Assembly: GCA_964424195.1 (NCBI GenBank)
Contig: CAYRHT010000004.1
Span: forward strand, 76,769-140,768
Direction of reading: 5' to 3'
Length of the DNA stretch: 64,000 nt
Source of the DNA: an uncultured Gammaproteobacteria bacterium
GTDB lineage: Bacteria > Patescibacteriota > Patescibacteriia > UBA1558 > S5-K13
Below the pieces are notes generated by a model. It saw nothing but the letters and a program-made list of their open reading frames with translations, made no database searches and was not told where the DNA came from. Each line of letters opens with the position of its first letter. The stretch's first letter is position 1. This document shows, in pieces, positions 38,501-61,190 of this stretch. Position numbers and translations under genes: made by a program.

Positions 38501-41500
38501 GGAAATGAATATTAGGAGTTATCAGAATAATTTTAATATTTATGAATGTTCTGATGGAGACGCACCTCTAGAGTTAGAATATTGTAATGAGCTTAAATCT
38601 TTTAATTCTGTAGAAGCGAATACTTTTTTAGAAATAAATACTTTAGATTTTCAAGCAGGATATTGGTATCGAGGAGAGTTATTAGACGAGATTAAAGATA
38701 TAGAAGGTTCTAGTTTAAATGAATATTCTTGGTATTTTAGAATAGATCCTTATGGGGCAATATGTGAACCAGATACTTTAAATATTGAACCTAATAATTT
38801 TGTAAAGACCTATGTAGCTAATGATACTCTTACTTATACAGGATTGTTAGTTGATAGTGAAAATTGTTATGTTTGTGCTAGTGATGGTTATGATTATGAT
38901 TGGGAGAGTAGTGATACAAGTTTAGCTACTATTGCTAATAATAATACTTCAGAAACTGATGTAACTTTAAATGATTATTATAATTTTGGTAATTTAGAAA
39001 TTAGAGCTACTTCTACTTTAGATACTTTAGAGTTAGCTGATGATACAAATTTATACATCGTAGCTAATTGTTCTATTTATGAAGACTCAACAACTTGTCA
39101 TGATAGTGGAGAATGTTGTTGGGATGGAGAAACTTGTGGTTCAGATATGAGTGTTTGTGATGAAGATTGTTTAGTCTATACAGAAGTAGATACTTGTGAA
39201 GCTGATACTTGTTGTTGGGCTAACGAAGAATGTCTCTTTGAAAATAATCCAGATTGTGGTTTACCAATAGATTGTTCTATTTATGAAGACTCAAAAACCT
39301 GTCATGAGAGCGGTGAGTGTTGTTGGGATAGTGGTGATATTTACTCAACTACACCTGAAGGAGGTATTTGTAGTGATGATATGACAGCTTGTGATGAAGA
39401 TTGTTTAGTATATAAAGAAGTAGAGACTTGTGAAGCTGATGCTTGTTGTTGGGCTAATGAAGAGTGTTTATTTGAGAATAATTCAGCTTGTGATTTTGAG
39501 ATAGAAGATCCGGAAGTTGATCCAGTTCTAGATGATTTAATGATCTTATCAAATTATCCAAGAAATGAATCTTCTAATATTTGTCCTAATACTTTGATTA
39601 AAGTGGAATTTGATTTACCAGTAGATGCTGATAGCTTAGAGGGTAATATTGAGTTATTAGAGAGTTCAAGTTTTGGTTCTGCGGCAAATATTGATTTTAC
39701 CTATTCTTCTTACAGAAGATATGATGGAACTTCCGTTTTAGAAATAATTCCTCAAGGGATTTTAGATTCAACAACAATATATCAAGTTAATCTATTAGAT
39801 GGTGAAAATGGTATTAAATCTAATGAGGGTGGGGGATTATCTTGTGATAGTTCTTCTAATGGTAGTATTAATAATGGAAGATGTGATTGGAGTTTTACTA
39901 CAGCTGCTAATGTTTGTGATTTAAGTTATGTGAAAATAGTTAATCCAGTAGATAATTATTATGAATTTAATACTCCAATGATTGGAGAAACCTTTATTGC
40001 TGAAGCTAGAACAATTTCTGGAGATCCAATAGTATCAGTAGCTGGAGTCTATGATTGGCAATGGAAGTGGGAATCTTTTGATGAATCATTAGTGACTTTA
40101 GCAGGAGATAATTCTGATTCTGTTTTAGTTATGCCAGCTAATAATAATGGTACAACAATAGTTGAAGTTAATGCTCTTCAAATTCCATCAGAATCAATTT
40201 GTAATGATTATAGTCAGGCAAGTTGTGAAATTAATTCTTGTTGTTGGGTAGATGGTGTTTGTAGTGCAAATCTAGAAACTTGTGAAGAAAATTTATTAAG
40301 TTTTGCTGGTAAATCTGGTTACAAGGGAATAACTTTGAGTGATGAAGTAGAAGTTGAATTATTTATGTGTGAAAATTCTTGGGCATTTGAAGATAGAAAT
40401 TTTAATTTTAAGTTTAAATATTGTCGAGATGGAGGACTACCTTATTTAGCAGATTCTTTAGAAAATGGTTTGATTATAAATGATTTTGAAGCGGTAGAGG
40501 GAGAAGATTCTTTATTAAGAGAATATATATTTAAATATATACCTGATCCTAATCAACAGGCTAATTCAGGAAATTATAATTTAGTAGATGCTAAATCAAA
40601 TAATAGTCTTATGTCAGAAGTAGGAATTTCTGGTTTAGCAGATAATCAATTAGGATTTAAATTCTTGTCTAAAATATTTAGAGGAGCTGTTTCTTATTTT
40701 TCTAATAATAGAGTTTTGGCAGCCACTCCATCAGGTCAAGGAATTTTACCAAACGATATCTTGGGTTTAAGAATATATCAGAACAAGAATCATTATTCTC
40801 CTATTGCTTGGTATTCTTCTACTAATGTAGTTAATTTTAAAGGTTCACCAAATCCTATTTCGATAAATGGTTATCAAGGTCTTAAAGATGGTCGAACCAC
40901 TTATGTTAATGCTGCTAACAAAGTAGATAATAGTATTTATACAAACATTTCCTTAATTTCTCATAATCAAGATGCTATCTTAGAAACTGTAAATATATTT
41001 AATCAGTTAGTAGATAATTGGAAGTTTAATATTAATATGCGTCCTGATTCTAAATCTCAACTAATTGAAGATGTTCAAAGATGGGAAGATTTAAGAAGAA
41101 TGGAAAGTAATTTAGATAATTATGCTGCTCAGAATAAATATTGTGCTTATGTTTCTGATCCTGTGGCTGGAGCTTGTGGTACCTATCCAATTCAATATTA
41201 TCATTTTGATTTAAATGGTAACAAGACTATTGATTCAGCAGAATGCTATAACGTTTCTGCAACAAAATCATGTAGTAGTGACTCTGAATGTCAGAATAAT
41301 GATATGGGTTATGATCAGTGTGTAGGTGTTTATCCAGAGCTTAATGAAGGAACTTATGTTCAAGGAATATCAACTTCTGCTTGGCCTTCTTGGAATTCTA
41401 CTTTGGCTAATCAAATGGGAACCTCTTTACCAATTGATCCTGTAAATGAATTTAATTCTTGTAGTGCTTCTTATGATCAGCAAACTTGTTGGGATGTTGA

Positions 41501-44500
41501 AGGACAGACATTCTCTTGTCCAAGAGATTCACATATTTATTATTATCAAGCAAGTAATAGTAATAATATAGATAAAAGAGCTTTAAGTTTTAATTTATAC
41601 AGTTTATTTAATTTTAATACTAAGAATGATAGTTATTGGAATGGTAGTGGTATAAATAGGACTTTTAATTCAGCAATTAATAGTTTTAATAGTCTTAACT
41701 TAAATAATTATGATGTTTGTAATGATCAAGTTTCAGCTACTTGTGGAAACGGTATTAAGGAATTAGGAGAAGAGTGTGAGTACGGTCAAACATTATCTTT
41801 GTGCAGTAACATTACCCATAGAGGATATTATAATCCTACTGAAGTTGGTTGTCGTTATGATTGTCAGTGGCCAGCTCATATCAATGATCCAGAAGATTGT
41901 TTAAGTTGTGGAGATGGTGTATTTAGTCCAGAATATGGAGAAGTTTGTGAACTTGGTCAATCAGAGATGTTCTGTGAAGACAGTTGGAATCCTCAAGAAG
42001 TTTCTTGTGTTGCTTGTCAGTGGCCAGATTTAGATGAATGTGAATATTGTGGAGATGGTGTTTGTGATATTGATCTTGATAATAATGGTGTTCCTTTTGA
42101 AGGAAGTGATCCAGGAGAAGATAATTTTTGTTATCAAGATTGTGAAGATGGATGTGGTGATGGTATTTGTGATCATGAGTTTGAAGATGCTTATTCTTGC
42201 TATATTGATTGTGGTGATTGTGGTGATGAAATAGTATCTGGCTGGGAGGAATGCGATTTGAATATTGGTGAAGAATGTTTAGCTGGTGATTATGGTGGAC
42301 ATTATCAATGCATAAATAGTGGAGATGATGAATGTACTTGGTCTGATGAATGTACTCCAGATGGTAATTGTGGTGACGGAGTTGTAAATGGTAATGAATT
42401 ATGTGAAATTAATGATATTGGTCCACAGTGTGAGAGAAATACGGATGCTTATTGGGGTAATCGGGAATGTATTGTTACTACTGAAACTCAACCATATAAT
42501 TCAGAAGATTGTTTTTGGCATCTTAATACAGAAGAGGATAATATTTGGTGTCCAACAGATGAATCATGTGGTGACGGAGCTATTAATGGTCTTGAAGAAT
42601 GTGACGATGGAAATAATGCAAATGAAGATGGTTGTGATTCTAATTGTTTATTAGAATGTGGTAATGGTGAGATTGAGCCTTTAGAAGAATGTGACGATGG
42701 AAATAATGTAAATGAAGATGGTTGTGATTCTAATTGTTTGTTTGAATGTGGTAATAGTCAACATGAATATTGGGAAGTTTGTGACGAAGGATCTTATAAT
42801 AACGATGATTGCTCTCCTTATTATCAATTTGAACAATCTGGACATACTTATTGTCAGACTGATTGTTTGTCTGAGTGTACGGTACAAGGTAATTATTGTG
42901 GTGATGGAATTGTTCAATCTTCTTATGAGGACTGTGATACTCCTGGTTTATTAGAAATTTATACAGAGAAGAAGATGGAGATAGTATTTATTTTTGATAT
43001 GACTTCTAGTATGGGTGATGCTGCAACTGAATTATGTGGTGCTTTAGGGTCTGTAGCGTCAGATTTATATGAAAGAAAAGAAAACAATGAAATACAAGAT
43101 TATAAAATTACAGTTATGACATTGGGTGATTTAGAAGATGGAATTTTGAATAATAATCCTAATGATAACATTATTAGGACTGATGGTAATAATCCTTTGG
43201 TGTTTAATAATTTAGTTACTAATTGTGGAGTTTATCAAAATCTTAATAATTCATCTTATCCAGAATATGATAATATATCATATGCGAGTTTTTGGGATAA
43301 TGATAATAATAATTTAAATATTAATTTACCATCAGATGATAGTGAATGGTTTAATAATCTTTGTGGCCCAAATGGTCAAGGAGATACACAAGAGCATTGG
43401 GGATATGCAGTTGAAAAAGTAGCAACAAATTATAATTGGGAAAATGATTATCAAAGAATAATTATACCAGTTAGTGATGAGGCTGCTTATTGTGGAAATG
43501 ATTTTAATGATTATGATGATTATGATGAATCGACTTCTAATGGTAATGCATTGGATGGTTGGAATTTTACGGAAATATTAGTAGATACTGTTAACGCTTG
43601 TAATAATTCTGATCAACAAATTTATTTAAATCCCGTATTAATAAATACTGAACTTGCTGGTTTGTATTATAGCGGTCATCCTAGTTATAATGTAGCACAG
43701 GCAATTGCTGATGATACCGGAGGTGTTTTTAATAATACTACAGATAATTGGGCAGAAAGTATTATAAGTCTTGTTGATCACCTTTTCTGTGATGGTAATG
43801 GTGATGGTTATATGGATTGTTTTTTTAGTGGTGATATTCAAGATGTATGTACTTCCTGGACTTATTCAGCATGGAGTGAGTGTATAAATGGTCAACAAAC
43901 AAGAAGTATTCTTTCTTCTTCTCCAGATGACTGTATTAATGGAAATTCTATTTTAACTCAAAATTGTGACGTGTGCGTTTCCTGGACTTATTCAGCATGG
44001 AGTGAGTGTATAAATGGTCAACAAACAAGAGAGGTTTTAACTTCTTATCCATATAATTGTATTGATGGAGATCCTGTTTTAACTCAAAATTGTGCCGGAG
44101 AGGACGAATGTGCAAATAACTATGTTACAAATGGTAATTTTTCATCTGGTTTTAATTGTTGGAATTCAAGTACAAATTTTGAGAATATGAATACTGATAA
44201 TAATATATTTGAAGTAAATATTATTGGTGGAGGGAGTAATAATATGTATTTTTCATATGATAATTTTCTTTTTATAGAAGGTGAAACATATAAATTATCT
44301 TTTGATTATGATACAACATCTGATCTTGTGCTTGGAGTTAGTAGTGTTTCTGGTTCTTCTATGCCTATTGGTGTAATGAGTTCTTATTGTACTGTTGATA
44401 GTTGTGAGTGGATTTTTACAGCATCTTCTCAGCAATTCCTATTTTCATTCCCACCAAATGTAAATAATCAGACAATGCATTTAGATAATATTGAGATTGT

Positions 44501-44516
44501 CCATATACCCGATTAA
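35526..44516 (+). CDS. Giant (2,996 aa) multi-domain surface protein: pilin-like N-module, Ig-like repeats, Cys-rich repeats, VWA, TSP1-like repeats, CBM-like tail
   Basis: Uninterrupted 8,991-nt ORF; CG[DN]G..EECDDGN.NEDGCDSNC repeats; MIDAS FDMTSSM; W-S-x-W-S-E-C repeats. Confidence 0.75.
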   Translation: MIKKKKNIFRLLTLSMIGIFALPLVSFAQILVPQVAGLGTADIKTVAGTLIQVFLGLLGLIALVIVLVAGFKWMTSGGNEEKVSEAKKMLIAGVIGLVIIMASYVITSFILDSIQGAIDGPGEDDQTCSVGVCYTCNRCDSDGDLIYDNTCPGCNNSIADFNFRTNWYSPQSNNVSLCSMIQIKFNANLDQDYFNDNIKPGSTPIGTSQSQSLFHFYECLEYADNQCVKVSDDLVENSSQFTINENILQFRLGEDYAEDTYYVVDLPLKGIKQEGESKYLSNNLTWTFKTGKETDINPPTVINVFPGPEGEVCLNSYIEIEFSEDMDLNSLKDLEAFRLYENIPDNLSDIEFLHSVQNDKLIVHPDRNYNLNHNYFPVLNGDVIKDTCGNLLDGDFDGKSEYAPTDDYPTNGPSVAWNFKTGENEYCQPQITGVTSETYYDDDSPLTITGHYLSGGTTLVFNDDLVIDENSNLCLNDSYWPDDLCAAGTWEVNEINTFIPADGGDSFGVIAEKPSIKIQTDQGSTEENFALLSPRIVKISPDRGGKGQYISVLGNNFDEFQDINFAESKIFFRSESDEYLEADLPCDKEGWKNNSIVITAPEGLEVNSSYRIQIKKVLVNDVEYWSNLGDYYYNEEDAGPGLCSINKETIEYEDEFILDGFKLGDSNIERRVVLGDDYNSTSAPTINWGDPVDGQDTRVVAQAPNLASADDIGVRVAVEIDGELRFSNYLNVDVLSDFSDQFYISYISPEVASVGEYITIYGSGFGNSQGDQTVRFYNNTFTWPEGDFNFPEACSSVYWQDDQIIVKVPEIFTTLPFESQIKVVNDQIETAAVAVEIDDEDPAPSICSVNPELGTLGDELEIIGEYLNDVDWLTFAYETDDALDIRPNSTNKGVVEVSVPETNTGLISAHNTSGYGNTWNFEYQKVEEGPAEEWDFYGWEFTTCTQCESPRVRVQSCDAELKFSPSPAPGNKFVPLGSNVYIEFEYQDEDPAEMNIRSYQNNFNIYECSDGDAPLELEYCNELKSFNSVEANTFLEINTLDFQAGYWYRGELLDEIKDIEGSSLNEYSWYFRIDPYGAICEPDTLNIEPNNFVKTYVANDTLTYTGLLVDSENCYVCASDGYDYDWESSDTSLATIANNNTSETDVTLNDYYNFGNLEIRATSTLDTLELADDTNLYIVANCSIYEDSTTCHDSGECCWDGETCGSDMSVCDEDCLVYTEVDTCEADTCCWANEECLFENNPDCGLPIDCSIYEDSKTCHESGECCWDSGDIYSTTPEGGICSDDMTACDEDCLVYKEVETCEADACCWANEECLFENNSACDFEIEDPEVDPVLDDLMILSNYPRNESSNICPNTLIKVEFDLPVDADSLEGNIELLESSSFGSAANIDFTYSSYRRYDGTSVLEIIPQGILDSTTIYQVNLLDGENGIKSNEGGGLSCDSSSNGSINNGRCDWSFTTAANVCDLSYVKIVNPVDNYYEFNTPMIGETFIAEARTISGDPIVSVAGVYDWQWKWESFDESLVTLAGDNSDSVLVMPANNNGTTIVEVNALQIPSESICNDYSQASCEINSCCWVDGVCSANLETCEENLLSFAGKSGYKGITLSDEVEVELFMCENSWAFEDRNFNFKFKYCRDGGLPYLADSLENGLIINDFEAVEGEDSLLREYIFKYIPDPNQQANSGNYNLVDAKSNNSLMSEVGISGLADNQLGFKFLSKIFRGAVSYFSNNRVLAATPSGQGILPNDILGLRIYQNKNHYSPIAWYSSTNVVNFKGSPNPISINGYQGLKDGRTTYVNAANKVDNSIYTNISLISHNQDAILETVNIFNQLVDNWKFNINMRPDSKSQLIEDVQRWEDLRRMESNLDNYAAQNKYCAYVSDPVAGACGTYPIQYYHFDLNGNKTIDSAECYNVSATKSCSSDSECQNNDMGYDQCVGVYPELNEGTYVQGISTSAWPSWNSTLANQMGTSLPIDPVNEFNSCSASYDQQTCWDVEGQTFSCPRDSHIYYYQASNSNNIDKRALSFNLYSLFNFNTKNDSYWNGSGINRTFNSAINSFNSLNLNNYDVCNDQVSATCGNGIKELGEECEYGQTLSLCSNITHRGYYNPTEVGCRYDCQWPAHINDPEDCLSCGDGVFSPEYGEVCELGQSEMFCEDSWNPQEVSCVACQWPDLDECEYCGDGVCDIDLDNNGVPFEGSDPGEDNFCYQDCEDGCGDGICDHEFEDAYSCYIDCGDCGDEIVSGWEECDLNIGEECLAGDYGGHYQCINSGDDECTWSDECTPDGNCGDGVVNGNELCEINDIGPQCERNTDAYWGNRECIVTTETQPYNSEDCFWHLNTEEDNIWCPTDESCGDGAINGLEECDDGNNANEDGCDSNCLLECGNGEIEPLEECDDGNNVNEDGCDSNCLFECGNSQHEYWEVCDEGSYNNDDCSPYYQFEQSGHTYCQTDCLSECTVQGNYCGDGIVQSSYEDCDTPGLLEIYTEKKMEIVFIFDMTSSMGDAATELCGALGSVASDLYERKENNEIQDYKITVMTLGDLEDGILNNNPNDNIIRTDGNNPLVFNNLVTNCGVYQNLNNSSYPEYDNISYASFWDNDNNNLNINLPSDDSEWFNNLCGPNGQGDTQEHWGYAVEKVATNYNWENDYQRIIIPVSDEAAYCGNDFNDYDDYDESTSNGNALDGWNFTEILVDTVNACNNSDQQIYLNPVLINTELAGLYYSGHPSYNVAQAIADDTGGVFNNTTDNWAESIISLVDHLFCDGNGDGYMDCFFSGDIQDVCTSWTYSAWSECINGQQTRSILSSSPDDCINGNSILTQNCDVCVSWTYSAWSECINGQQTREVLTSYPYNCIDGDPVLTQNCAGEDECANNYVTNGNFSSGFNCWNSSTNFENMNTDNNIFEVNIIGGGSNNMYFSYDNFLFIEGETYKLSFDYDTTSDLVLGVSSVSGSSMPIGVMSSYCTVDSCEWIFTASSQQFLFSFPPNVNNQTMHLDNIEIVHIPD

Positions 44517-50986: not shown

Positions 50987-51283
50987 ATGCCAGAATTAAA
51001 ATCAAAACCAGCAGATCATTCATCTGTAGAAAGACTTCTGAAAGAGAATATAGAGTTGAATGAAAAGATCTATGAAAGTTGTCAAAAAACAGAGAAGTAT
51101 ATTCACTTTGTAAAAGCTTTTAGTATATTTAAATTTATTGTAATTTTGATTCCAGTTATTGTTGGTATTTTATATTTACTTCCAGTAGTAGGGGACTTTT
51201 TGGAGATATATAAAGGATTCTTCACTAGTGCAGGAGAAATGACTGGTGTTTTAGATGCTGTGAAAGATATTCAAGGTTTGTAA
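50987..51283 (+). CDS. Small membrane protein, unknown
   Basis: 98 aa, one TM; start abuts nrdR stop. Confidence 0.4.
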   Translation: MPELKSKPADHSSVERLLKENIELNEKIYESCQKTEKYIHFVKAFSIFKFIVILIPVIVGILYLLPVVGDFLEIYKGFFTSAGEMTGVLDAVKDIQGL

Positions 51284-51305
51284 TTAGATACTCCTAATGT
51301 TAATA

Positions 51306-51333
51306 GGACTCATTAAGAAAGTGAGTTTTTTAT
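51306..51333 (+). terminator. Rho-independent terminator
   Basis: actcat...gtgagt hairpin plus T6. Confidence 0.6.
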
Positions 51334-51354
51334 TTTACTAAAACCCTAATTTAT
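51328..51354 (+). repeat. 27-bp direct repeat copy 1 (TTTTATTTTACTAAAACCCTAATTTAT)
   Basis: Identical 27-mer at 54994-55020; both directly follow terminator hairpins. Confidence 0.85.
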
Positions 51355-51508
51355 TTAATTTAAATTCTAAATTTATCAATTATTTTTATATAAATAATAT
51401 CTTTTATATATATATGAATTAATAGATTATTAAATAGTTTTTTGATATACTTATACTAAGTAAATATATATTATTTATATAACATAAATTACATTAATTA
51501 TAAAAAAT

Positions 51509-54500
51509 ATGAAAGAAGAAAATAGAACAGGGATTACTACTCAAGTAGCTCAAAGAGTGTCAACAAAAACCAAAGTTCTGGTAGGTGTAGTAATGGGTTT
51601 AGCTATTGTTGGAATGTTTGCTTTTGTAGGAATGGCTTTTGAAAATGTTAAAAATTCAGATTATTATAAAAAATTAAATATTCAAGTTCAGTTAAAGAAA
51701 AAAGGATATTTTGTAAATCAAGATATGGATTCTTATGCTAGTTTTGATAATTTAGGTCAGGATATGATGGATAGAAGTTTCAATGATAGAGAGGAAAAGG
51801 AATTAGGTATTAAAGATATTCAAGGGGTTTTAGAGAAAAAAGGAACATTGTGGCAAGGGGTAGATAATAAAATTTTTAAATTGAATAAAGAAAAAAAAGA
51901 AAATCTTTTAGGTTTAGAAATAACAGAAGAAGAATTAAGAGAAGCTAAAGAAAGAGAAAGAAATCAAATAGTATCAAGAGATGGTGAATTACCTAATTTT
52001 TTTGATTGGAGAGATTTGCATGGTGGTTTAGATTATACGACTCCTGTTAGAGATCAGGGAAATTGTGGTTCTTGTTGGTCTTTTGCAGCTTTAGGAGCTT
52101 TTGAGGCTAATATAGAAGCTTATTATAATAATCCTAATTTAAATATTGATTTATCTGAACAGGATTTAGTTTCTTGTTATTTAGGAGATGGATGTAATGG
52201 TGCCTATACAGGCGAGATTGAATCATTATTTAATGATTATTTTCAAAATACAGGAGTTGCTAATGAGACTTGTTTTCCATATACAGAAACTGATATCGAT
52301 TGTGAAAATAAATGTTCTGATTGGCAAAATGAAGCTTGGAAAACCGTATCTTTTGTAAGTTCAGAAATGACAATTGATGACATTAAAACAGCTTTAATAG
52401 AGAACGGACCTTTAGAAGTTGGTATGGAAGTTTATGCTGATTTTCCTGCTTATGATAATGGAATATATCATCATGTTACTGGCGATCTTTTAGGTTATCA
52501 TGCAGTTTTAATAGTGGGTTATGGGGTTTATGATGGAATGGATTACTGGATTGTTAAAAATTCTTGGGGTGAAGATTGGGGTGATAATGGTTATTTTAAA
52601 ATTTTAGCGGGAGATTCATTAATAGATTCTTTATTTGCTTATGGTATAGAGCAACCAGAAAAATTAATTGAAGATAGTCCAGAAAGATTATGTGTAGATC
52701 AGGATGAAGATGGTTATTGTTATTGGGGTTTAGGTGATGTGCCAAGTACTTGCTCTTCTACTTGTATTCTAGATATTTCGGATTGTAATGATGCTAATGA
52801 AGGAATATTTGAAGATTGCGGGGAAAATACAGAGACTACTGGATTTTTAAATATTACTTCTGAACCGTCTGATGCTGAAGTTTATATTAAAGATTTAGAT
52901 TCTAACAATTGGATCTATCGAGGGAATACACCATTAGAGATTGAGTTAAATGTTGGAGAAAGAGAAGTTTTAGTTTCTAAAGAGGATTATATTGATGATG
53001 AAGAAATTGTGTTAATAAATGAAGATAGTACAGGAAATTATTTTGTTGAATTAAATTTAGCACCTAAATTGATAAGTCCAGAGAATAGAGATATACTGAG
53101 AGCAGGAGGAATTATTGAAATAATTGGTACTGTACCAGGACCAGATTTAGAGAGTTTTTCAATAGAATATGGTTTAGGTGAAAATCCAACAGAATGGTTT
53201 ACTGAAGGAATAGATTTAATAAATAATGGTCAAGTTCCAATTGTAGAAGATGTTTTAGCTACTTGGAATACTAGTTTTATTACTGAAGATAATTTTTATA
53301 CATTAAGATTGATAATAAATTTTACTAATGAAGGAGAAACTTTTTATATTGAAAATCTTTATTTAGATTCTACTTTAAAAGAAGGATGGCCTATTAAATT
53401 GGATAATAGAGAAAGTGATGTATATTGGGGTCTTTTTCAACCTTCTGTGGCTGATTTAAATAATGATGGAAATAAAGAAATTATAGTATATGAAGCAGGT
53501 AATGATAATAAATTATATGTATATGATTATGCAGGGAATATATTACCAAATTTTCCAGTAAATTTACCAAGTGATGGATTGGAAAGCATTGTTGTTCTGC
53601 CGGCAATAGGGGATATAAATAATGATGGTTTTAAGGAGATAATAATACTAGGAGGAAATATTTACACTGTTGATTGTGGAAGGGCTCCTCTAATTTTAAT
53701 TTATGATTATTATGGAAATCAATTAGATTCATTTCCTCTAGCATATCCTGATTTGCCTTATGGTTGTGATACTTTTTCCATAGATCAACCAGCAATATCT
53801 TTAGCAGATTTAAATCAAGATGGAAATTTAGAAATAATAGTATTAGGAGGCACAGCAATTACTATATTAGATAATTTTGGGAATACTTTTAATGGTTGGC
53901 CTAAATATCTTTCTGGTTGGGTAGGAGGAACTCATGAGAGTAGTCCAGCAGTTGGAAATCTAGATGATGACGATGATTTAGAAATTATAGTTTCTAAAGA
54001 TTGGGCTCCGACACAAGGTAATCCAGTTGATAATAAGGGAATGATTTATGTTTGGAATTTTAATGGAACTAATGTTCCAGGATGGCCTATTGAGACTCAT
54101 GGATATTCTCATTCTTCAGCTACCATAGGAGATATAGATAATGATGGAGAAAATGAAGTAGTTGTGGGATTTAATTATGATGAAAATCCTCCTAACGATT
54201 ATGGTATATATATTTACGATAACAATGGAAATGTTTTAGATGGTTGGCCTCAACTTTACAATAAAGAGGTATGGAGTAATCCCGTTTTAGGTGATTTTGA
54301 TAATAATAATGAATTAGAGATAATTGTTAGTAGTTTTTATCATCCATATGAAACATATATATTTGATAACAATGGAAATGTTTTAGATGGTTGGCCTCAG
54401 CAAATGTGTTATGCAGATTGGTATTCACCTATAGTTTCTGATATTACTGGGGATGGTATTTTAGATGTTATAACTAATAATAATTTTGATAGTGATTGTT

Positions 54501-54952
54501 CTATTTATGCTTGGAATTATGACGGTAGTTTAATTAATAATTTTCCTAAAATAACACAATCTTCAGTATATTCTCCAGTTGTTATTTCTGATATTGATAA
54601 TAATAATTTTTTAGAATTAATTGCTACATCTAATTCATTCAATTATGAAGATGGGATAGTTGAAAGAGTTATTTATGTTTGGGATTTAGATGCTTCTTCT
54701 AATTCTAATGAATTATCTTGGTCGCAATTTAGGCATGACAATCAAAATACTGGTAATTATAATTTTAGAAGATGTTCTAATGAAGTAGCTTATAGCGAAT
54801 GTTCTAGTGAGCAACCATTATTTTGTAGTAATGGAGAATTGATAGATGATTGTCAGGAATGTGGATGTCCAATGGATGAATCTTGTCAGGAAGACGGAAG
54901 TTGCGATTTGACTAAATCTAAAGAGACAGAAGCAACACCTAATACTCGTTAA
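51509..54952 (+). CDS. Membrane-anchored papain-like (C1) cysteine protease fused to PEGA domain and FG-GAP-type beta-propeller, Cys-rich C-terminus
   Basis: QGNCGSCWSFA (Cys), GYHAVLIVGYG (His), WIVKNSWGEDWGDNGY (Asn); PEGA-like block; at least 8 D.NNDG..E repeats. Confidence 0.8.
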   Translation: MKEENRTGITTQVAQRVSTKTKVLVGVVMGLAIVGMFAFVGMAFENVKNSDYYKKLNIQVQLKKKGYFVNQDMDSYASFDNLGQDMMDRSFNDREEKELGIKDIQGVLEKKGTLWQGVDNKIFKLNKEKKENLLGLEITEEELREAKERERNQIVSRDGELPNFFDWRDLHGGLDYTTPVRDQGNCGSCWSFAALGAFEANIEAYYNNPNLNIDLSEQDLVSCYLGDGCNGAYTGEIESLFNDYFQNTGVANETCFPYTETDIDCENKCSDWQNEAWKTVSFVSSEMTIDDIKTALIENGPLEVGMEVYADFPAYDNGIYHHVTGDLLGYHAVLIVGYGVYDGMDYWIVKNSWGEDWGDNGYFKILAGDSLIDSLFAYGIEQPEKLIEDSPERLCVDQDEDGYCYWGLGDVPSTCSSTCILDISDCNDANEGIFEDCGENTETTGFLNITSEPSDAEVYIKDLDSNNWIYRGNTPLEIELNVGEREVLVSKEDYIDDEEIVLINEDSTGNYFVELNLAPKLISPENRDILRAGGIIEIIGTVPGPDLESFSIEYGLGENPTEWFTEGIDLINNGQVPIVEDVLATWNTSFITEDNFYTLRLIINFTNEGETFYIENLYLDSTLKEGWPIKLDNRESDVYWGLFQPSVADLNNDGNKEIIVYEAGNDNKLYVYDYAGNILPNFPVNLPSDGLESIVVLPAIGDINNDGFKEIIILGGNIYTVDCGRAPLILIYDYYGNQLDSFPLAYPDLPYGCDTFSIDQPAISLADLNQDGNLEIIVLGGTAITILDNFGNTFNGWPKYLSGWVGGTHESSPAVGNLDDDDDLEIIVSKDWAPTQGNPVDNKGMIYVWNFNGTNVPGWPIETHGYSHSSATIGDIDNDGENEVVVGFNYDENPPNDYGIYIYDNNGNVLDGWPQLYNKEVWSNPVLGDFDNNNELEIIVSSFYHPYETYIFDNNGNVLDGWPQQMCYADWYSPIVSDITGDGILDVITNNNFDSDCSIYAWNYDGSLINNFPKITQSSVYSPVVISDIDNNNFLELIATSNSFNYEDGIVERVIYVWDLDASSNSNELSWSQFRHDNQNTGNYNFRRCSNEVAYSECSSEQPLFCSNGELIDDCQECGCPMDESCQEDGSCDLTKSKETEATPNTR

Positions 54953-54961
54953 TAATGCTAA

Positions 54962-54998
54962 ATCCCTCCAACTTTTAATCAAGTTGAAGGGATTTTTA
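54962..54998 (+). terminator. Rho-independent terminator
   Basis: 13-bp stem (one mismatch) atccctccaactt/aagttgaagggat plus T5. Confidence 0.65.
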
Positions 54999-55020
54999 TT
55001 TTACTAAAACCCTAATTTAT
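54994..55020 (+). repeat. 27-bp direct repeat copy 2
   Basis: Perfect match to 51328-51354. Confidence 0.85.
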
Positions 55021-55064: not shown

Positions 55065-55451
55065 ATGAAAATAAAGCAAACTAGTTTCAATATTTTTAAA
55101 TTAATCTTTGTAGATTTAATTTTAGAAATTATCTATTTTCCATTTTGGTGGTATTCTTCTGGTTTGTATCGAACTGGAGCTTTTTCTTTAAAACAAATAG
55201 CTCAACAATGGAATAATATGGGAATGGGTATTCATTTTAAGTTTCTATTTAAACCAATGTATGCTCAAAGGGATTTTAGTGGTCGAGTAATTAGTTTCTT
55301 TGCTCGTTTTATACAACTAATTTTTAAATTAGTTGTTTTTTTAATACTTATTTTAATATTCTTAGCACTCTTCTTGTTATGGATAATCTTACCGATTATT
55401 ATTATTTGGCAGATAAAGTTAAATTATGAATTTATAAGAAATGTTGGATAA
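55065..55451 (+). CDS. Small polytopic membrane protein, unknown; overlaps next gene by 11 nt
   Basis: 128 aa, several hydrophobic helices; likely translational coupling. Confidence 0.45.
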   Translation: MKIKQTSFNIFKLIFVDLILEIIYFPFWWYSSGLYRTGAFSLKQIAQQWNNMGMGIHFKFLFKPMYAQRDFSGRVISFFARFIQLIFKLVVFLILILIFLALFLLWIILPIIIIWQIKLNYEFIRNVG

Positions 55452-58113
55452 AAATATAATAATTAGCTGTGATAAATGTAATGGTGATGTAAAATGTCCA
55501 AATTGTTTAGGTCATCAAAATTATATTAAACTAGGTAATTTTTTAATTTATTGGGATAAAGATTATAGTGATTTAAATGTTTTAGTTGATCAAACTAGAA
55601 AGGTTATTAAAGTAGTGATGAATTTGATATTAATTATCTTTTTAGTTATGGGTTTATTTGCTTTGATTTACCATCTTTATTTATTAATGAATTCTGATAG
55701 TAATTTATTAGTTTTAGGTAATTGGCAGGGTATTTATTTGCTTATATTTTGGCTTAGTCTATTCTTCGATATGTTTTTATTCTATAGATTAAAGAAGCAT
55801 CGGTTTGAAATTGAAAAAGTAGTAAAGGTAAGTTCTTTTGATGAGGATAGGGATAAAATAATTGAGAAGAATATCTATAAATCTTTAAGTAAGGATGTAA
55901 AAAAACTTCTTTTAAGATCTTGGTTTGCATCTAAGAAAAGTAAAGCAAAAGCAATTGATCCTTTATATCTATTTTTATCATTATTAGGAAATCCAAATAT
56001 TAGTTTAATTTTTAGTCGTTTAGGAATTAATAAAGATAGTTTTAAAAAGAAGTTAGAGAGATTAATAGAAGAAAGAGGAGAAGTAAAACAAAAAGAGTTT
56101 GATTTAAATGTTATTATGTTTAACTCCTATCTAATAGCTCATCGATCTATGTCATCTCAAGTTATGGTTAGTCATATCTTAGAATCTTTAGCTCTGAGTA
56201 ATGAAAATGTATTAGAATTGTTCTTAGATTCAGGTGTGAGTGTTGATCAGATTAATAATGTTATCATGTGGGTAAAATTAGGTGAGAGTTTAAGGGATAA
56301 ATACAAGAGGTATAAAGCTCGTTCTGTATTTAAACCTAAAGGAGCTATGAATAGGTCAATGACTGCCATTGCTACACCATTGTTAGATAGATTTAGTCAG
56401 GATATGACTTATCTAGCTAAAATGGGTTATTTAGGACTAAATATAGCTCGAGGAAGTAAAATAGAAGAGATTTATCGAATTATAGAAACTGGAAGTAATG
56501 GAGTAATGTTAGTAGGTCAACCAGGAGTTGGTAAAGATAGTGTGATTGAAGGTTTAGCAAATAGAATGGCTGCTGAGGAAGTTCCTAAGCATTTACAAGA
56601 TAAAAGATTAGTTAGTCTATCTCTTTCAAGTTTAGTTTCTAAATCTTCAGTAGAGGGACAGGTAGAGAATAATCTTTTGAGAATAGTAAATGAAGTAGTT
56701 AGATCTGGTAATATAATTTTAATTATTCAAGATATTCATAATATTGTGGGAGTGACATCAGCTGGGACTGAAAATGTAGATTTGTCAGAAGTTCTAGCAG
56801 ATGTAATTGCTAAGTATAATATCATGATTATTGGAACTACAACTCCAAATGATTATACTAAATACCTAGAAAGAAATCCTTTATCTTCTAATTTATTAAA
56901 AGTAGATTTACCAGAACCTAATTTTAATGAAACAGTTCAAATCTTAGAAGCTAAAACTTTTGCTATTGAGAATAAGTATAAAGTATATTTCTCCTATCAA
57001 GCTATTGAAAAGATTGTGAAATTAACTACTAACTATATCCATGATCGTTTTCAACCTAGTAAATCTATTAAAATATTAGAAGAAGTAGCTGTGATGGTTA
57101 AAAAAGCAAAGGGTAAGAATCGTTTAGTAACCATTGAAGATGTTTCAAAGATTGTTTCTGAAAAAGTAAATATTCCTTTGGAAAGCGTTAGTGATTCAGA
57201 GAGTGATAAGCTAATGAATTTAGAGGAATTAATTCATAAAAGAGTTATTGGACAGCATGAAGCGGTGAAAATGGTTTCTTCAGCTCTTAGAAGAGCTCGA
57301 GCTGAACTAAGAGATGAGGATAAACCAATTACTAACTTATTGTTTTTAGGTCCTACTGGTGTTGGTAAAACAGAATTAGCTAAGACAGTTTCCCAAATAT
57401 TTTTTAATAGCGAAGATGATTTAATTAGATTGGATATGTCTGAATATCAAGAGAGAACTAGCTTGGGTCGTTTAATTGGTATGGAAGGAAGTACAGAAGG
57501 TGGAGTTTTAACTGAAGCTATTCGAAAGAATCCTTTTTCATTATTATTACTAGATGAGATTGAAAAAGCTCATCCAGATATATTGAATATATTTTTACAA
57601 GTTATGGATGATGGTCGTCTAACCGATTCTAGTGGACGAACTATAGATTTTTCAAATTGTATCATTATTGCTACTTCTAATGCTGCAGCTTTTTATATCC
57701 AAGATCAAGTAGCTCTAGGTACTGATTTAGAGAAAATAAAACAAGATTTATTACAGAATGAATTAAGATCTAATTTTAGACCTGAGTTTTTAAATCGTTT
57801 TAATGGTGTTGTGCTATTCAAACCTCTAACTCCTAAAGAAATAGAGCAAATTACAGTCTTAATGTTGAAGAAAGTAGCTAAGAGATTAGAAAAGAAAGGA
57901 ATTAATTTTAGGGCTTCTGAAGAAGCTATTAAAGAGTTAGCAGAAGTTGGTTTTTCTAAAGAATTTGGAGCTCGACCTTTAGCAAGAGCTATCCAACAAA
58001 GAGTAGATAATTCTCTTGCTAATTTTTTACTTACTGGTAAAATTGGAAGACGAGACAAGGTTGTTCTAGAAAAAGGAGGGGAAATTAGAATTGAAAAAGC
58101 TAAAAAGTTTTAA
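55441..58113 (+). CDS. Membrane-anchored Hsp100/Clp-family AAA+ ATPase (N-terminal Zn-ribbon + 2 TM; degenerate NBD1; canonical NBD2 motifs; no pore-loop Tyr)
   Basis: CDKC...CPNC; two TM; Clp_N-like repeats; NBD1 GQPGVGKDS / IIQDIH; NBD2 GPTGVGKT, LLLLDEIEKAHPD, ATSN, GARPL. Confidence 0.8.
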   Translation: MLDKNIIISCDKCNGDVKCPNCLGHQNYIKLGNFLIYWDKDYSDLNVLVDQTRKVIKVVMNLILIIFLVMGLFALIYHLYLLMNSDSNLLVLGNWQGIYLLIFWLSLFFDMFLFYRLKKHRFEIEKVVKVSSFDEDRDKIIEKNIYKSLSKDVKKLLLRSWFASKKSKAKAIDPLYLFLSLLGNPNISLIFSRLGINKDSFKKKLERLIEERGEVKQKEFDLNVIMFNSYLIAHRSMSSQVMVSHILESLALSNENVLELFLDSGVSVDQINNVIMWVKLGESLRDKYKRYKARSVFKPKGAMNRSMTAIATPLLDRFSQDMTYLAKMGYLGLNIARGSKIEEIYRIIETGSNGVMLVGQPGVGKDSVIEGLANRMAAEEVPKHLQDKRLVSLSLSSLVSKSSVEGQVENNLLRIVNEVVRSGNIILIIQDIHNIVGVTSAGTENVDLSEVLADVIAKYNIMIIGTTTPNDYTKYLERNPLSSNLLKVDLPEPNFNETVQILEAKTFAIENKYKVYFSYQAIEKIVKLTTNYIHDRFQPSKSIKILEEVAVMVKKAKGKNRLVTIEDVSKIVSEKVNIPLESVSDSESDKLMNLEELIHKRVIGQHEAVKMVSSALRRARAELRDEDKPITNLLFLGPTGVGKTELAKTVSQIFFNSEDDLIRLDMSEYQERTSLGRLIGMEGSTEGGVLTEAIRKNPFSLLLLDEIEKAHPDILNIFLQVMDDGRLTDSSGRTIDFSNCIIIATSNAAAFYIQDQVALGTDLEKIKQDLLQNELRSNFRPEFLNRFNGVVLFKPLTPKEIEQITVLMLKKVAKRLEKKGINFRASEEAIKELAEVGFSKEFGARPLARAIQQRVDNSLANFLLTGKIGRRDKVVLEKGGEIRIEKAKKF

Positions 58114-60002: not shown

Positions 60003-60022
60003 TAATAATTTATGGTATTTTA

Positions 60023-60052
60023 AAAGCTCAACTTATTAAGTTGAGCTTTTTA
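60023..60052 (+). terminator. Rho-independent terminator after glyQS
   Basis: Perfect 11-bp stem aagctcaactt/aagttgagctt plus T-run. Confidence 0.75.
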
Positions 60053-60133
60053 GATAAAAGAAAACCCACAATTACTACATTGTGGGTTTAGCCTCATCCT
60101 AGGTAAAGGACAAGATTTCATAAACCATTTCAT
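60050..60133 (-). CDS. Candidate small ORF (27 aa, MKWFMKSCPLPRMRLNPQCSNCGFSFI)
   Basis: ATG 6 nt after perfect AAGGAGGT; contains 10-bp perfect hairpin (60063-60089); not in ORF track (too short). Confidence 0.3.
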   Translation of the reverse strand: MKWFMKSCPLPRMRLNPQCSNCGFSFI

Positions 60134-60252
60134 ATTTACCTCCTTGTGAAATAATTTATATTATTGTGCTCTCTTCGATTCTTTTTATCACCACTTCCTT
60201 TGAGCGTTGGTTAGAGCGATGGTTATCTGGAATAAGATTAAAGGAGCTTAAT

Positions 60253-60816
60253 TTATTTTTTTATATACTCTTCTATGCCCATTTTTTTTGAATAGTTATA
60301 AAAGTTCATAGTTCTTCTACAGTTTGTTCCAATAGAATAACTTTCCATCCCAATTACATCTCCATTTCTTTTTTCTTTTTTATCTGGATGAATAAATCCT
60401 ATTTGACATTTATGGTTGTGGAATTTACTTTTGTCAATTTTTTTGAAATTTACCAACCAGTTGTCTGGACATTCGTTTGCGATAATTTTTTGAATGAATT
60501 TTAATCCAATGTTGAAGTTATGAATGAATTCATTTGTAGCTTCATCAAACCGATGGAATTGTTCCTTCCCTTTTTCAATGGAAATTTCTTTTAAAGGTAC
60601 AAGAGAAAGAATATCCTTTTTATTTTTGCCCTTGCATTCATTGATTACAAATTCATGCGCATGTTCAAAAATATGGTTTCCATCAGTTACACCTTCCTTT
60701 TCATACTCTTTTTGTAGAATAATTGCTTTTGGTATTAAATCCATTTTTTCCTCCATTAGTACTATAAAGTACCGACTACAACCTGCCATTTCTGGTTCAG
60801 GATTTATCGTAGCCAT
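60253..60816 (-). CDS. Hypothetical protein (likely start at Met 60744 after GGAGGA SD), atypical codon usage
   Basis: ORF with internal SD+ATG; no recognised domain. Confidence 0.5.
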   Translation of the reverse strand: MATINPEPEMAGCSRYFIVLMEEKMDLIPKAIILQKEYEKEGVTDGNHIFEHAHEFVINECKGKNKKDILSLVPLKEISIEKGKEQFHRFDEATNEFIHNFNIGLKFIQKIIANECPDNWLVNFKKIDKSKFHNHKCQIGFIHPDKKEKRNGDVIGMESYSIGTNCRRTMNFYNYSKKMGIEEYIKK

Positions 60817-61190
60817 GATGAGTTTTTTTGACTCGTCAATCAGCTTAATCGCTTCTAATGTGTCTTTGGACGAGCACTATTTAACTCTCAATCAGCTATA
60901 TGTTGTCATAAGGACAACAAGGCGCTTCTAATGGAAGTTCATTACCTCTTCCTTTTAATAAACAAGTTAATTATTTACTAGAAAGAAGAGATAATGTATT
61001 TAGTTTTTAAAGAACTTCATTAATATTGAGAGTAGTAGAGGAGATTTAAATCTGCCGTTATATAATATATGTGCAGTAATCTCCTTCACTACTCTTAACG
61101 TTAATATTTAATTATAGCATATTATTAGAATAATGTCAAGTATTTATTTATCTAGTTTATTGATATACTGAAATAGTAAAATCTAATTAT

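Follow-up and report, generated by a model that had tools for sequence, protein, structure and literature searches.

Cwp84 of Clostridioides difficile is a C1A surface protease synthesized as an inactive proenzyme; its substrate is the S-layer precursor SlpA (PMC4089489). The 1147-aa protein analyzed here resembles it in being bacterial and in the order of its parts, with an export signal, a propeptide (only predicted here), a papain fold, a carbohydrate- or Ca-type domain, and C-terminal surface-binding modules (PMC4089489). While Cwp84 is cathepsin-L-like and has three CWB2 (PF04122) repeats, our protein is cathepsin-B/DPP1-like and has PEGA, sandwich, and propeller domains; no match to PF04122 is found in it at E-values up to 1. 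The gene here is accessory rather than conserved.

The best matches in both sequence and structure are cathepsin B and DPP1 (cathepsin C), eukaryotic C1A enzymes with the same catalytic residues. The Cys equivalents of the papain 22-63 disulfide and of Cys56 are also kept, as in both enzymes (by motif, the conserved C186, C223, and C229 correspond to papain Cys 22, 56, and 63). In cathepsin B, carboxydipeptidase activity comes from the occluding loop, about 20 inserted residues that include two His. This loop is absent here. Between the aligned blocks this region has 46 residues compared with 72 in cathepsin B (about 26 fewer), and the catalytic domain as a whole is about 225 aa long compared with about 254 aa. 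The exclusion domain of DPP1 is also absent, because residues 1-160 consist of a membrane segment, a disordered spacer, and a short pro-region. Unlike either enzyme, the protein has about 760 additional residues of C-terminal modules.

An eight-bladed propeller of the FG-GAP/VCBS type is shared with Bap1 and RbmC, the biofilm matrix adhesins of Vibrio cholerae. The Bap1 propeller binds exopolysaccharide directly and tethers further functional domains to this polymer (PMC10102183). While Bap1 and RbmC have beta-prism lectins and no protease domain, the protein here has a protease head. Four metagenomic S8 proteases (P0336, P0344, P0314, and P0361) have the same sandwich-propeller module (positions of about 500-1065 in the family profile) and a secreted head with its own prodomain. 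They belong to the serine rather than the cysteine class and have neither PEGA nor the Cys-rich linker; our searches found no experimental characterization of them. Protease and adhesion domains are also combined on the surface of ultra-small symbionts in the SPEARE proteins of Nanohaloarchaeota (DPANN), which have been suggested to attach to the host and break down its S-layer, a function that is only proposed, as it is here (PMC6642349). SPEARE proteins, likened here by description, are much larger (3,000-8,500 aa); they combine a serine protease with laminin-G, toxin-like, and intracellular restriction-enzyme domains, and their membrane anchor is C-terminal.

Catalytic domain, pro-region, and export segment

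The gene is found at 51509..54952 (+ strand) of the window (the whole stretch of 64,000 nucleotides analyzed) and starts with ATG. Based on Pfam and homolog alignments, this CDS encodes a multidomain protease precursor of the C1A family, with an N-terminal hydrophobic segment, a pro-region, Peptidase_C1, a six-Cys linker, PEGA, a beta-sandwich, an eight-bladed propeller, and an eight-Cys tail. The preliminary description called for domain prediction, and the Pfam matches to Peptidase_C1, PEGA, FG-GAP_3, and FG-GAP are all above cut-off. The domains it listed are as described, but its list omitted the pro-region (residues ~98-160), the six-Cys linker (395-437), and the beta-sandwich (517-625). 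Public databases already label the protein as a C1A protease; no published description of an architecture with C1A, PEGA, and propeller was found in the literature. About 50 cluster representatives, from CPR bacteria and from DPANN or other archaea, have the full architecture. The identical protein with the same neighbors is found on all 24 contigs read, which come from independent assemblies and more than one sample.

The papain-fold catalytic domain (residues 161-385; 51989..52663, + strand) is delimited by PF00112, by the DPP1 and cathepsin B alignments, and by invariant residues. PF00112 (Peptidase_C1) matches residues 161-369 with an E-value of 3.3e-56 and 191.3 bits (cut-off 20.7), covering profile positions 1-206 of 220. 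In papain numbering, Gln183 is Q19, Cys186 is C22 (a disulfide Cys), Cys189 is C25 (the nucleophile), His331 is H159, Asn351 is N175, and Trp353 is W177. On the + strand, the catalytic codons are at 52055-52057 (Q183), 52073-52075 (the nucleophile C189), 52499-52501 (H331), and 52559-52561 (N351). The catalytic motifs match those of DPP1 and cathepsin B residue for residue, and all six residues show no variation in an alignment of 38 homologs. The complete C1 set of Gln, Cys, His, Asn, and Trp that had been read from the DNA is thus confirmed against active enzymes. Because this set is intact and conserved, the protein is, as judged from its sequence, an intact papain-type enzyme and not a pseudo-protease. 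The DPP1 alignment (E 1e-46, 38% identity) is confined to residues 207-421 of the DPP1 chain, which make up its catalytic part. In the AlphaFold model, pLDDT is above 90 across residues 160-385, and Foldseek aligns this predicted model to mature cathepsin B with an rmsd of 2.5 A over 255 columns (TM 0.78). A phylogeny of the C1 domain had been suggested as a check; in a rough tree, the domain belongs to a prokaryotic clade separate from the eukaryotic cathepsins.

Residues 23-45 (51575..51643, + strand) form a single hydrophobic export segment (Kyte-Doolittle maximum 2.56; model helix 20-41), and the N-tail ahead of it has a net positive charge. This segment may be a stable signal anchor, a signal peptide of the uncleaved type, or a cleaved signal peptide. 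An N-terminal hydrophobic segment is found in 36 of the 38 homologs and a C-terminal one in none; the hydropathy scan found no C-terminal one in the 1147-aa protein. The protease is likely to be extracytoplasmic, since the export segment is so widely kept, the disulfide-type Cys are conserved, and Ca-loop motifs are present.

Following a spacer that is disordered in the AlphaFold model, residues ~98-160 (51800..51988, + strand) probably form a folded, cathepsin-B-like pro-region, as indicated by the model, Foldseek, and conservation. The model has helices at 101-111, 127-133, and 140-151 and a strand at 114-117, with pLDDT of 85-92 for residues 100-150. The best Foldseek matches are procathepsin B zymogens, aligned over the pro-region and the enzyme together (about 310 columns, TM 0.74-0.79). 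In the 38-homolog alignment the pro-region segment is conserved throughout and W115 is invariant. The protein is therefore probably a zymogen, a claim that rests on predicted structure because the Pfam propeptide families I29 and Propeptide_C1 do not match the pro-region. As the membrane segment is N-terminal to the pro-region, activation in the C1A style would probably cut the mature enzyme off its anchor. Retention of the enzyme after activation would then depend on the C-terminal modules. The enzyme had been described as membrane-anchored outside the cell. The location is likely, but an anchored state is, by this analogy and from the position of the pro-region, probably true only of the inactive precursor and not of the active protease.

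C-terminal modules and their exchange among homologs

The Cys/Asp-rich linker (residues 386-443; 52664..52837, + strand) was recognized in the homolog alignment, where Cys 395, 404, 415, 419, 426, and 437 as well as D399 and D401 are invariant among the 38 homologs. Its residues 422-439 have pLDDT below 50. A Pfam search of residues 381-445 at E-values up to 10 gave no match, PF11617 included, and PF11617 is annotated in some homologs only; we take residues 395-437 to resemble the MopE-type Cys/Asp metal-binding motif of this family. The next domain (residues 444-516; 52838..53056, + strand), described earlier as PEGA-like, is indeed matched by PF08308 (PEGA) at residues 446-516 (E 2.9e-7, 30.7 bits, cut-off 20.8), and it is modeled as an all-beta sandwich with pLDDT above 90. 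A second beta-sandwich (residues 517-625; 53057..53383, + strand) is modeled with pLDDT of 90-97. It has no Pfam match, its presence varies among the homologs, and it is missing in the closest one, P0002.

Residues 626-1070 (53384..54718, + strand) form an eight-bladed FG-GAP-type beta-propeller, as defined by Pfam, loop motifs, and strand groups. FG-GAP_3 scores 83.4 bits (cut-off 26.9) in seven stretches and FG-GAP scores 47.9 bits (cut-off 22.1). Blade loops are found at residues 649, 702, 767, 817, 875, 929, 978, and 1028, and both AlphaFold models show eight strand groups. The preliminary description had counted at least eight integrin-alpha-like blades with a D-x-[ND]-x-D-G-x-x-[DE] loop. 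The number of blades is right, but only four loops (649, 702, 767, and 875) have the strict D-x-N-x-D-G-x-x-E pattern and the other four are degenerate. Nor does the propeller have the seven blades of integrin alpha subunits; the closest solved structure is that of Bap1, an adhesin with eight blades. In the PDB, the C-terminal model (PEGA, sandwich, propeller, and tail) is matched best by Bap1 (6mlt, E 1e-11). With 16% sequence identity and a global TM-score of 0.33-0.37, which is low because both proteins are multi-domain, this match is silent on which ligand is bound. After the propeller comes the closing motif WSQFRHDNQNTGNY, read from the sequence, and then the tail (residues 1071-1147, closing motif included; 54719..54949, + strand). 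The tail, described earlier as CxxC-rich, has eight Cys within 1089-1132 but CxxC just once (CQEC). It is modeled with low AlphaFold confidence and has no Pfam match.

Comparison with the homologous locus L084 divides the gene. The head (51493-52996) and the tail (54734-54909) are 85% identical to L084 DNA, while blastn finds no nucleotide similarity to L084 across the intervening 1.7 kb. Based on blastn and per-segment identity, the swapped segment is 52997..54733 (+ strand), comprising the end of PEGA, the beta-sandwich, and the propeller. The tail is 84% identical to that of P0002, and the nearest relatives of head and tail are discordant with those of sandwich and propeller. These patterns are best explained if the propeller is an exchangeable targeting part that has been swapped between close relatives. 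While the parts of the gene are individually ordinary, the gene itself is, from these alignments, a chimera with a propeller from another lineage.

Sharing of these modules is not limited to C1 proteases. Many proteins match the family profile at positions 500-1065 only, and in five of the nine tested among them the head is Peptidase_S8 and comes with its own prodomain. The propeller also matches an M6-like family; NCBIfam lists an "inactivated" M6-like protease family with this kind of propeller. The presence of the sandwich-propeller module behind subtilisin heads suggests that targeting and cutting modules are mixed and matched. No conserved neighbor genes that would tie the enzyme to a host were seen at the homolog loci.

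A variable slot between conserved genes

The neighbors of the insert encode NrdR, small membrane ORFs, and a ClpC-like ATPase, and the insert consists of the protease gene alone. Homology to the sister genomes stops at 51276-51282 and restarts at 54982-55000. Near the left edge, a weak terminator-like hairpin (51305..51329, + strand; -8 kcal/mol, z -1.3) follows the upstream 98-aa gene and is itself followed by a T-run. A homologous hairpin, ACTCATTAGGAATGAGT, occurs at the empty site of the sister locus L095. A repeat search found a perfect 28-nt direct repeat, TTTTTATTTTACTAAAACCCTAATTTAT, with a left copy at 51327..51354 and a right copy at 54993..55020 (both + strand). The right copy continues into GGGAAAATATAGATAG, a motif that every sister genome keeps upstream of its 128-aa/ClpC-like genes. 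Only these two copies exist in the 64 kb even when three mismatches are allowed (shuffles expect 0), and the empty site in L095 has one copy of the repeat motif.

Within the insert, the AT-rich 154 nt upstream of the gene (51355..51508, + strand) show no similarity to the sister genomes. This region presumably holds the gene's own promoter; a promoter scan of it scored not above chance. The gene ends in a strong hairpin with a U-run, resembling an intrinsic terminator (54960..54995, + strand; -15.7 kcal/mol, z -4.55), and none of 200 shuffles folds as well. An unrelated 228-aa cargo at L088 ends with a similar hairpin. In four sister lineages the slot is empty or has other cargo while the same flanking genes, including that of a giant protein, are kept; the protease gene is found in only one of the five congeneric lineages sampled. 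The best explanation is that the protease gene is an accessory single-gene insertion flanked by a 28-nt duplication, at a hot spot between conserved genes. Its codon usage is native-like, and the insertion is therefore either not recent or from a similar genome. The gene had been called a mobile-looking unit. The flanking hairpins, the repeat, and the variable slot support this, but no integrase or transposase is found in or beside the insert or at the homolog loci. Because no recombinase gene lies alongside, "mobile" is better read as a variable inserted cassette than as a demonstrated mobile element.

Proposed mode of action and alternatives

On balance, we consider it reasonably probable that the gene encodes an exported, zymogen-type C1A endopeptidase of a CPR (Patescibacteria) bacterium with a tiny genome, an enzyme that is targeted by its propeller and carried as an accessory insertion. 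The N-terminal hydrophobic segment would export the protein and keep the precursor at the membrane, where the cathepsin-B-like pro-region is predicted to block the active site. By analogy with other C1A enzymes, removal of the pro-region would activate the enzyme and at the same time sever the anchor. The disulfide-rich linker, PEGA, the second sandwich, the Ca-loop propeller (Bap1-like and possibly glycan-binding), and the Cys-rich tail would position the mature enzyme, which could cleave extracellular proteins wherever the propeller binds, on a surface or in a matrix. The likeliest targets would be the cell envelope of a host or partner, or else proteinaceous matter that is scavenged as an amino-acid source. 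The organism is placed in the CPR by the relatives of its FtsZ and by the contigs with the gene, which reach about 0.95 Mb; its lifestyle is assumed here to be that of its phylum.

Alternatively, the protein may be a freely secreted nutritional protease that loses its signal peptide and digests environmental protein, its C-terminal domains stabilizing it or binding particulate substrate without a partner-specific role. Pathways for many amino acids are generally absent from CPR bacteria. In many homologs the hydrophobic segment begins at residues 4-7, as in a conventional signal peptide, GMA|F (residues 42-45) can be read from the sequence as a possible signal-peptidase site, and S8 proteases of the digestive type carry the same C-terminal module. 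However, the hydrophobic stretch here is a long one of about 23 residues that begins at residue 23 behind a charged tail, more like a signal anchor. Moreover, about 700 aa of adhesin-type modules are conserved and are replaced wholesale by recombination, which suggests that targeting matters. We regard this alternative as unlikely; if it is true, the finding is an ordinary one.

Still less likely is that, as a Cwp84-like enzyme held on its own surface by PEGA and propeller, the protein matures its own envelope by processing precursors of the S-layer, pilins, or giant surface proteins. PEGA domains are typical of S-layer-type proteins, and a 2996-aa surface protein is encoded 7 kb upstream of the protease gene in the window. 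The logic is also that of Cwp84, in which a signal peptide, propeptide, C1A domain, lectin-like domain, and surface-binding repeats serve SlpA cleavage (PMC4089489). A core maturation function is nevertheless improbable, since four congeneric lineages retain the flanking genes, that of the giant protein included, but do not have this gene. Furthermore, no substrate gene is conserved beside the homologs, CWB2 repeats are absent from the protein, and the propeller swap between close homologs agrees better with external targets that vary than with one fixed target on the cell itself. A catalytically dead adhesin is already disfavored and very improbable, as is an artefact of gene fusion or assembly: although the gene is a mosaic when compared with its closest homolog and an "inactivated" M6-like family has the same kind of propeller, the catalytic residues are invariant and aligned with active enzymes, the protein and its neighbors recur on every contig read, and the full architecture recurs in the cluster representatives.

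Returning to the propeller-targeted endopeptidase, CPR bacteria and DPANN archaea are generally regarded as living in attachment to other cells, and to our knowledge very few of the molecules by which they act on these partners have been identified. The gene is a concrete candidate for such a partner-directed molecule, and it can be expressed in the laboratory. A more speculative extension, to which we give little weight, is that C1 or S8 heads with exchangeable eight-bladed propellers form a toolkit traded horizontally among ultra-small symbionts (CPR and DPANN), in which the propeller would pick the partner glycan, the protease would open the envelope, and cassettes would be loaded by a recombinase acting in trans. 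If so, propeller swaps or cassette gains would change host range, and the 28-nt repeat, together with the conserved hairpin at the cassette end, would be the signature of this integration system, by which cassettes of one gene each enter a fixed hot spot in the chromosome. Knowing what the propeller binds and what the protease cuts could indicate which organism is the partner and how contact or feeding works. The propeller differs between near-identical genes.

Catalytic domain and C-terminal modules

The ORF at 51509..54952 (plus strand, ATG start) codes for a protein of 1147 aa. Against Pfam it matches Peptidase_C1 at residues 161-369 (E 3.3e-56; 191 bits vs a curated cut-off of 20.7), PEGA at residues 446-516 (30.7 bits vs a cut-off of 20.8), FG-GAP_3 over seven stretches (83 bits), and FG-GAP (48 bits). 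The domains named in the preliminary description, including the one it called PEGA-like, are thus all recovered. The sole NCBIfam match is to the propeller part of 'T9SS-dependent M6-like inactivated metalloprotease' and lies far under the family threshold. Among solved structures, dipeptidyl peptidase I (E 1e-46, ~38% identity) and cathepsin B are closest in sequence, and their active-site motifs align with the motifs first read from the protease sequence. In papain numbering, we take Gln183 to be Q19, Cys186 the disulfide Cys22, Cys189 the nucleophile Cys25, His331 H159, Asn351 N175, and Trp353 W177. None of the six residues varies across 38 aligned homologs with the full architecture. Between the blocks aligned with cathepsin B there are 46 residues in the query vs 72 in cathepsin B. 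Since the occluding loop of cathepsin B falls in this region, the loop is absent from the protease. The sequence suggests a cleft of the endopeptidase type.

The whole protein was modeled with AlphaFold from the family alignment (mean pLDDT 78.5). The model is confident for the papain fold (160-385), PEGA (444-515), a second beta-sandwich (517-635), the propeller (640-1065), and, ahead of these, a small helical/strand unit (~residues 100-150). It is of low confidence for residues 1-20 and 35-97, for the tail, and for a stretch of the linker (422-439). The top Foldseek matches in the PDB are procathepsin B zymogens (5fpw, 4i04, and 1mir). These alignments extend over ~310 columns (TM 0.74-0.79 normalised to the zymogen), and therefore include the pro-region. 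Residues 98-160 are best read as a cathepsin-B-like pro-region. Because no Pfam propeptide model matches it, this reading rests on the predicted structure and on family conservation (W115 is invariant).

The linker (residues 386-443) has six Cys and two Asp that are invariant in the 38-homolog alignment. The pro-region, Cys linker, second sandwich, and tail give no Pfam match at E up to 10. A MopE-like identity for the linker and a named family for the tail were dropped on this ground. BLAST of each segment against all ORFs of the window finds nothing meaningful; the only similarity, of Cys repeats to a 2996-aa neighbour, is weak (E 8e-4, uncorrected for composition). This giant ORF (35526-44516, plus strand) has the JGI name 'cysteine-rich repeat protein' and precomputed Pfam matches to T4SS_pilin, DUF4215, Big_5, and TIG; counterparts of 2957-2965 aa exist in some sister genomes.

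At least eight propeller blades with a D-x-[ND]-x-D-G-x-x-[DE] loop had been claimed. Eight loops are found (residues 649, 702, 767, 817, 875, 929, 978, and 1028), but the strict pattern D-x-N-x-D-G-x-x-E is present in four only and the other four are degenerate. The AlphaFold model of residues 440-1147 alone (pLDDT 82, pTM 0.82) has eight strand groups, and its top solved match is the biofilm adhesin Bap1 of Vibrio cholerae (6mlt, E 1e-11), which outranks teneurins and integrin alpha chains. The tail contains eight Cys across residues 1089-1132. It is Cys-rich but not CxxC-rich as first described, with just one CxxC. Bap1/RbmC have an eight-bladed propeller with Velcro closure that binds Vibrio exopolysaccharide directly (PMC10102183); the propeller is of the same kind as that of the protease, while Bap1/RbmC have no protease domain.

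Membrane segment and proposed role

The sole hydrophobic segment, a putative stable signal anchor or cleavable signal peptide, is at residues 23-45; the C-terminus has none. An N-terminal hydrophobic segment exists in 36 of the 38 homologs, and none has a C-terminal anchor. While the segment of the protease is long and starts from residue 23, in many homologs it starts from residues 4-7 and resembles an ordinary signal peptide. In C1A enzymes the pro-region is normally removed on activation, as established for the family (PMC4089489). If activation of this type applies, the anchor holds the inactive precursor only, because the membrane segment is N-terminal to the pro-region. By analogy, the segment would tether the precursor, removal of the pro-region would free the enzyme from it, and only the C-terminal modules could then keep the mature enzyme in place. 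The N-terminal TM anchor of the preliminary description thus survives as a hydrophobic segment that would tether the precursor only.

The best-supported reading is an exported, zymogen-type endopeptidase of the papain family, with adhesin-type modules that would position the mature enzyme. Its likeliest targets would be envelope proteins of a partner cell or scavenged environmental protein. Cwp84 follows the same logic, although its surface-binding modules differ (PMC4089489). A Cwp84-like role, i.e., maturation of the producer's own surface proteins, is less likely because there are sister lineages without the protease gene. A catalytically dead enzyme is very unlikely; the claim of a complete C1 catalytic set is borne out by the alignment with dipeptidyl peptidase I and cathepsin B and by the invariance in the 38 homologs. 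A further parallel is found in the SPEARE proteins of Nanohaloarchaeota, in which a symbiont's protease goes together with adhesion domains, though SPEARE function is proposed only.

Family distribution and a chimeric gene

Every constituent family is already known and the protein is auto-annotated. An identical protein exists in public databases (JGI name 'C1A family cysteine protease') and occurs on each of the 24 contigs examined; among those listed, the maximum length is 953,322 nt. The C1, PEGA, and FG-GAP architecture is common to ~45 proteins with 31-52% identity. Where the organism is named, it belongs to Patescibacteria (Buchananbacteria, Jacksonbacteria, and Parcubacteria), to archaea (Nanoarchaeota and Pacearchaeota, besides bins with the label Methanobacteriota, Euryarchaeota, or just archaeon), or, in a small number of cases, to WOR-3 or Cloacimonadota among the remaining bacteria. 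When 1.84 billion representatives are searched with a profile, the whole architecture recurs in ~50 cluster representatives; in the literature searched, no paper was found on this architecture or on papain-like proteases of CPR. By neighbour-joining of C1 domains (a rough tree that has no support values), the protease belongs to a prokaryotic clade apart from eukaryotic cathepsins. Archaeal and bacterial C1 domains are interleaved within this clade.

Many proteins in the same profile search match positions 500-1065 only, i.e., the second sandwich and the propeller. Five of nine such proteins examined have Peptidase_S8 heads with I9 or fervidolysin-type prodomains. Therefore, the unit is a C-terminal partner common to exported proteases of differing catalytic classes. 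The novelty lies in a combination: a probable C1A zymogen bearing an eight-bladed propeller of the adhesin type that S8 proteases also have, exchange of this propeller as a block, and insertion of the gene into a hot spot with duplication of 28 nt. A protein with C1 and an NHL propeller (P0113) was considered as a same-genome paralog and rejected, since it belongs to another CPR genome. In another Patescibacteria genome (locus L093, 5001-9464), a C1 peptidase of 1487 aa is fused to an NHL/SGL-repeat propeller, and its gene is directly 3' of one for a TrwB-like type IV coupling protein.

The closest homolog, P0002, is encoded on a 6-kb contig (locus L084) with neighbours unlike those in the window. 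Window 51493-52996, which covers the membrane segment, pro-region, C1, linker, and most of PEGA, is 85.3% identical to L084 in nucleotides and 81% in amino acids, and the Cys-rich tail (54734-54909) is 85.2% and 84% identical. Between them (52997-54733; the end of PEGA, second sandwich, and propeller) nucleotide similarity is undetectable; the second sandwich is missing from P0002 and the propeller is only 33% identical in amino acids. The breakpoints are inside PEGA (residue ~496) and at the propeller end (residue ~1076). Across the family, the head and tail are nearest to P0002, P0012, P0014, and P0015, the set without the second sandwich, while the sandwich and propeller are nearest to P0003 and P0004. 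The discordant nearest relatives and the similarity break imply that the targeting half was replaced as a block. L084 also has at 5675-5740, ~30 nt 3' of the P0002 stop, a ~50-nt copy of the gene's 5' end (ATGAAAAAAGAATCAAGTAAGGTTGCTACTCAAGTAGCTCAGGGGGTTAC) leading into no open frame, which is a further trace of recombination. A metagenome scan with the head (residues 1-485) found a single locus, 52% identical, and no further mosaic partners.

A variable slot with a 28-nt repeat

GC of the window is ~30%, and the contig given for the protease gene measures 952 kb. The organism is placed by its FtsZ, whose nearest relatives are from Patescibacteria: identity is 73% to that of a 'Patescibacteria group bacterium' and 61-65% to those of Komeilibacteria, Nomurabacteria, and Buchananbacteria. 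The neighbours of the protease gene are NrdR and a 98-aa membrane ORF at one end, and at the other a 128-aa membrane ORF and a ClpC-like ATPase. This gene order is kept in genomes with FtsA or FtsZ 80-91% identical, but the slot content varies: an unrelated 228-aa ORF (L088 and L094), ~360 nt with no long ORF (L089, L090, and L091), 103 nt only (L095 and L096), or three minus-strand genes and a LOOT RNA (L097 and L098). Nucleotide homology between the window and sister genomes (~80-88% in the flanks) ends at 51276-51282 and restarts at 54982-55000.

A perfect 28-nt direct repeat, TTTTTATTTTACTAAAACCCTAATTTAT, is found at 51327-51354 and 54993-55020, with no further copy in the 64 kb when three mismatches are allowed (expectation zero). 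The empty site of L095 consists of a hairpin (ACTCATTAGGAATGAGT), TTTTTGTTTTACTAAAAGCTCAATTTAT-GGGAAAATATAGATA, and the 128-aa gene, and equals the left junction of the window fused directly to the right one with a single motif copy. The window state is therefore a single-gene insertion of 3,666 bp with a 28-bp duplication. Every relative has the motif TTTACTAAAA(C/G)C..AATTTATG.GAAAATATA 5' of the 128-aa gene, where it probably serves as the promoter of that operon. The insertion with its duplication is compatible with a circular piece having integrated at a short shared core, or with recombination across the core. Neither the slot and its surroundings nor the homolog loci contain an integrase or transposase, and the gene shows no compositional sign of foreign origin (GC 0.304, GC3 0.124, native-like codon usage). 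The mobile-looking unit of the preliminary description is thus upheld as a single-gene insertion with a 28-nt repeat in a variable slot, but without a recombinase and with native-like codons. The gene is best read as accessory, inserted, and recombining. Exact look-up of the two flanking small proteins recovers the same arrangement only and no empty allele in the same population. Direct repeats of at least 14 nt flank the gene at none of nine other C1-protease loci (L084 excepted, where the downstream copy is the 5'-end remnant) and at neither of two sister-genome slot loci.

A weak hairpin (-8 kcal/mol) lies upstream of the gene and a strong one (-15.7 kcal/mol, z -4.55), with a U-run after it, downstream. 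A promoter/terminator scan gives nothing beyond chance, and Rfam finds only tRNA-Lys in the window. The hairpin ending the L088 cargo is very similar to that ending the protease gene, though the cargos are unrelated. L088 14075-14130 and window 54960-55020 have a hairpin AAATCC(C/T)TC...GTTGAAGG, and the T-run and motif after it are also the same in both. Either an element marking cassette ends or a relic left when cargo was replaced could account for this.

In L089, the conserved promoter-like motif is separated from the 128-aa gene by a GC-richer insert of ~230 nt (13590-13800). The insert contains no ORF, gives no Rfam match at gathering threshold, and could be a structured RNA. The L097/L098 slot genes encode a Zn-ribbon/tRNA_anti-like protein, a 350-aa unknown, and an HSDR_N_2 nuclease-like protein. 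The LOOT RNA (RF03000; L097 12730-12853, minus strand, and also in L098) scores 74 bits vs a gathering score of 46.4. The 128-aa membrane ORF (55065-55451, plus strand) overlaps by 11 nt the start of the ClpC/ClpB-like ORF (55441-58113, plus strand), and the pair is kept in all sister genomes. The latter encodes a double-AAA+ protein of 890 aa with an odd N-terminus: a zinc-ribbon-like CxxC...CxxC (residues 10-22), hydrophobic segments (~57-115), and then a weak Clp_N. A second variable slot exists at window 60003-61185. Its 187-aa ORF (60253-60816, minus strand) has no Pfam match, and no other ORF of the window has codon usage as atypical (GC3 0.25, distance 0.141). L088 and L089 lack it; there, the gene for glycyl-tRNA synthetase directly adjoins a RadA-like gene.
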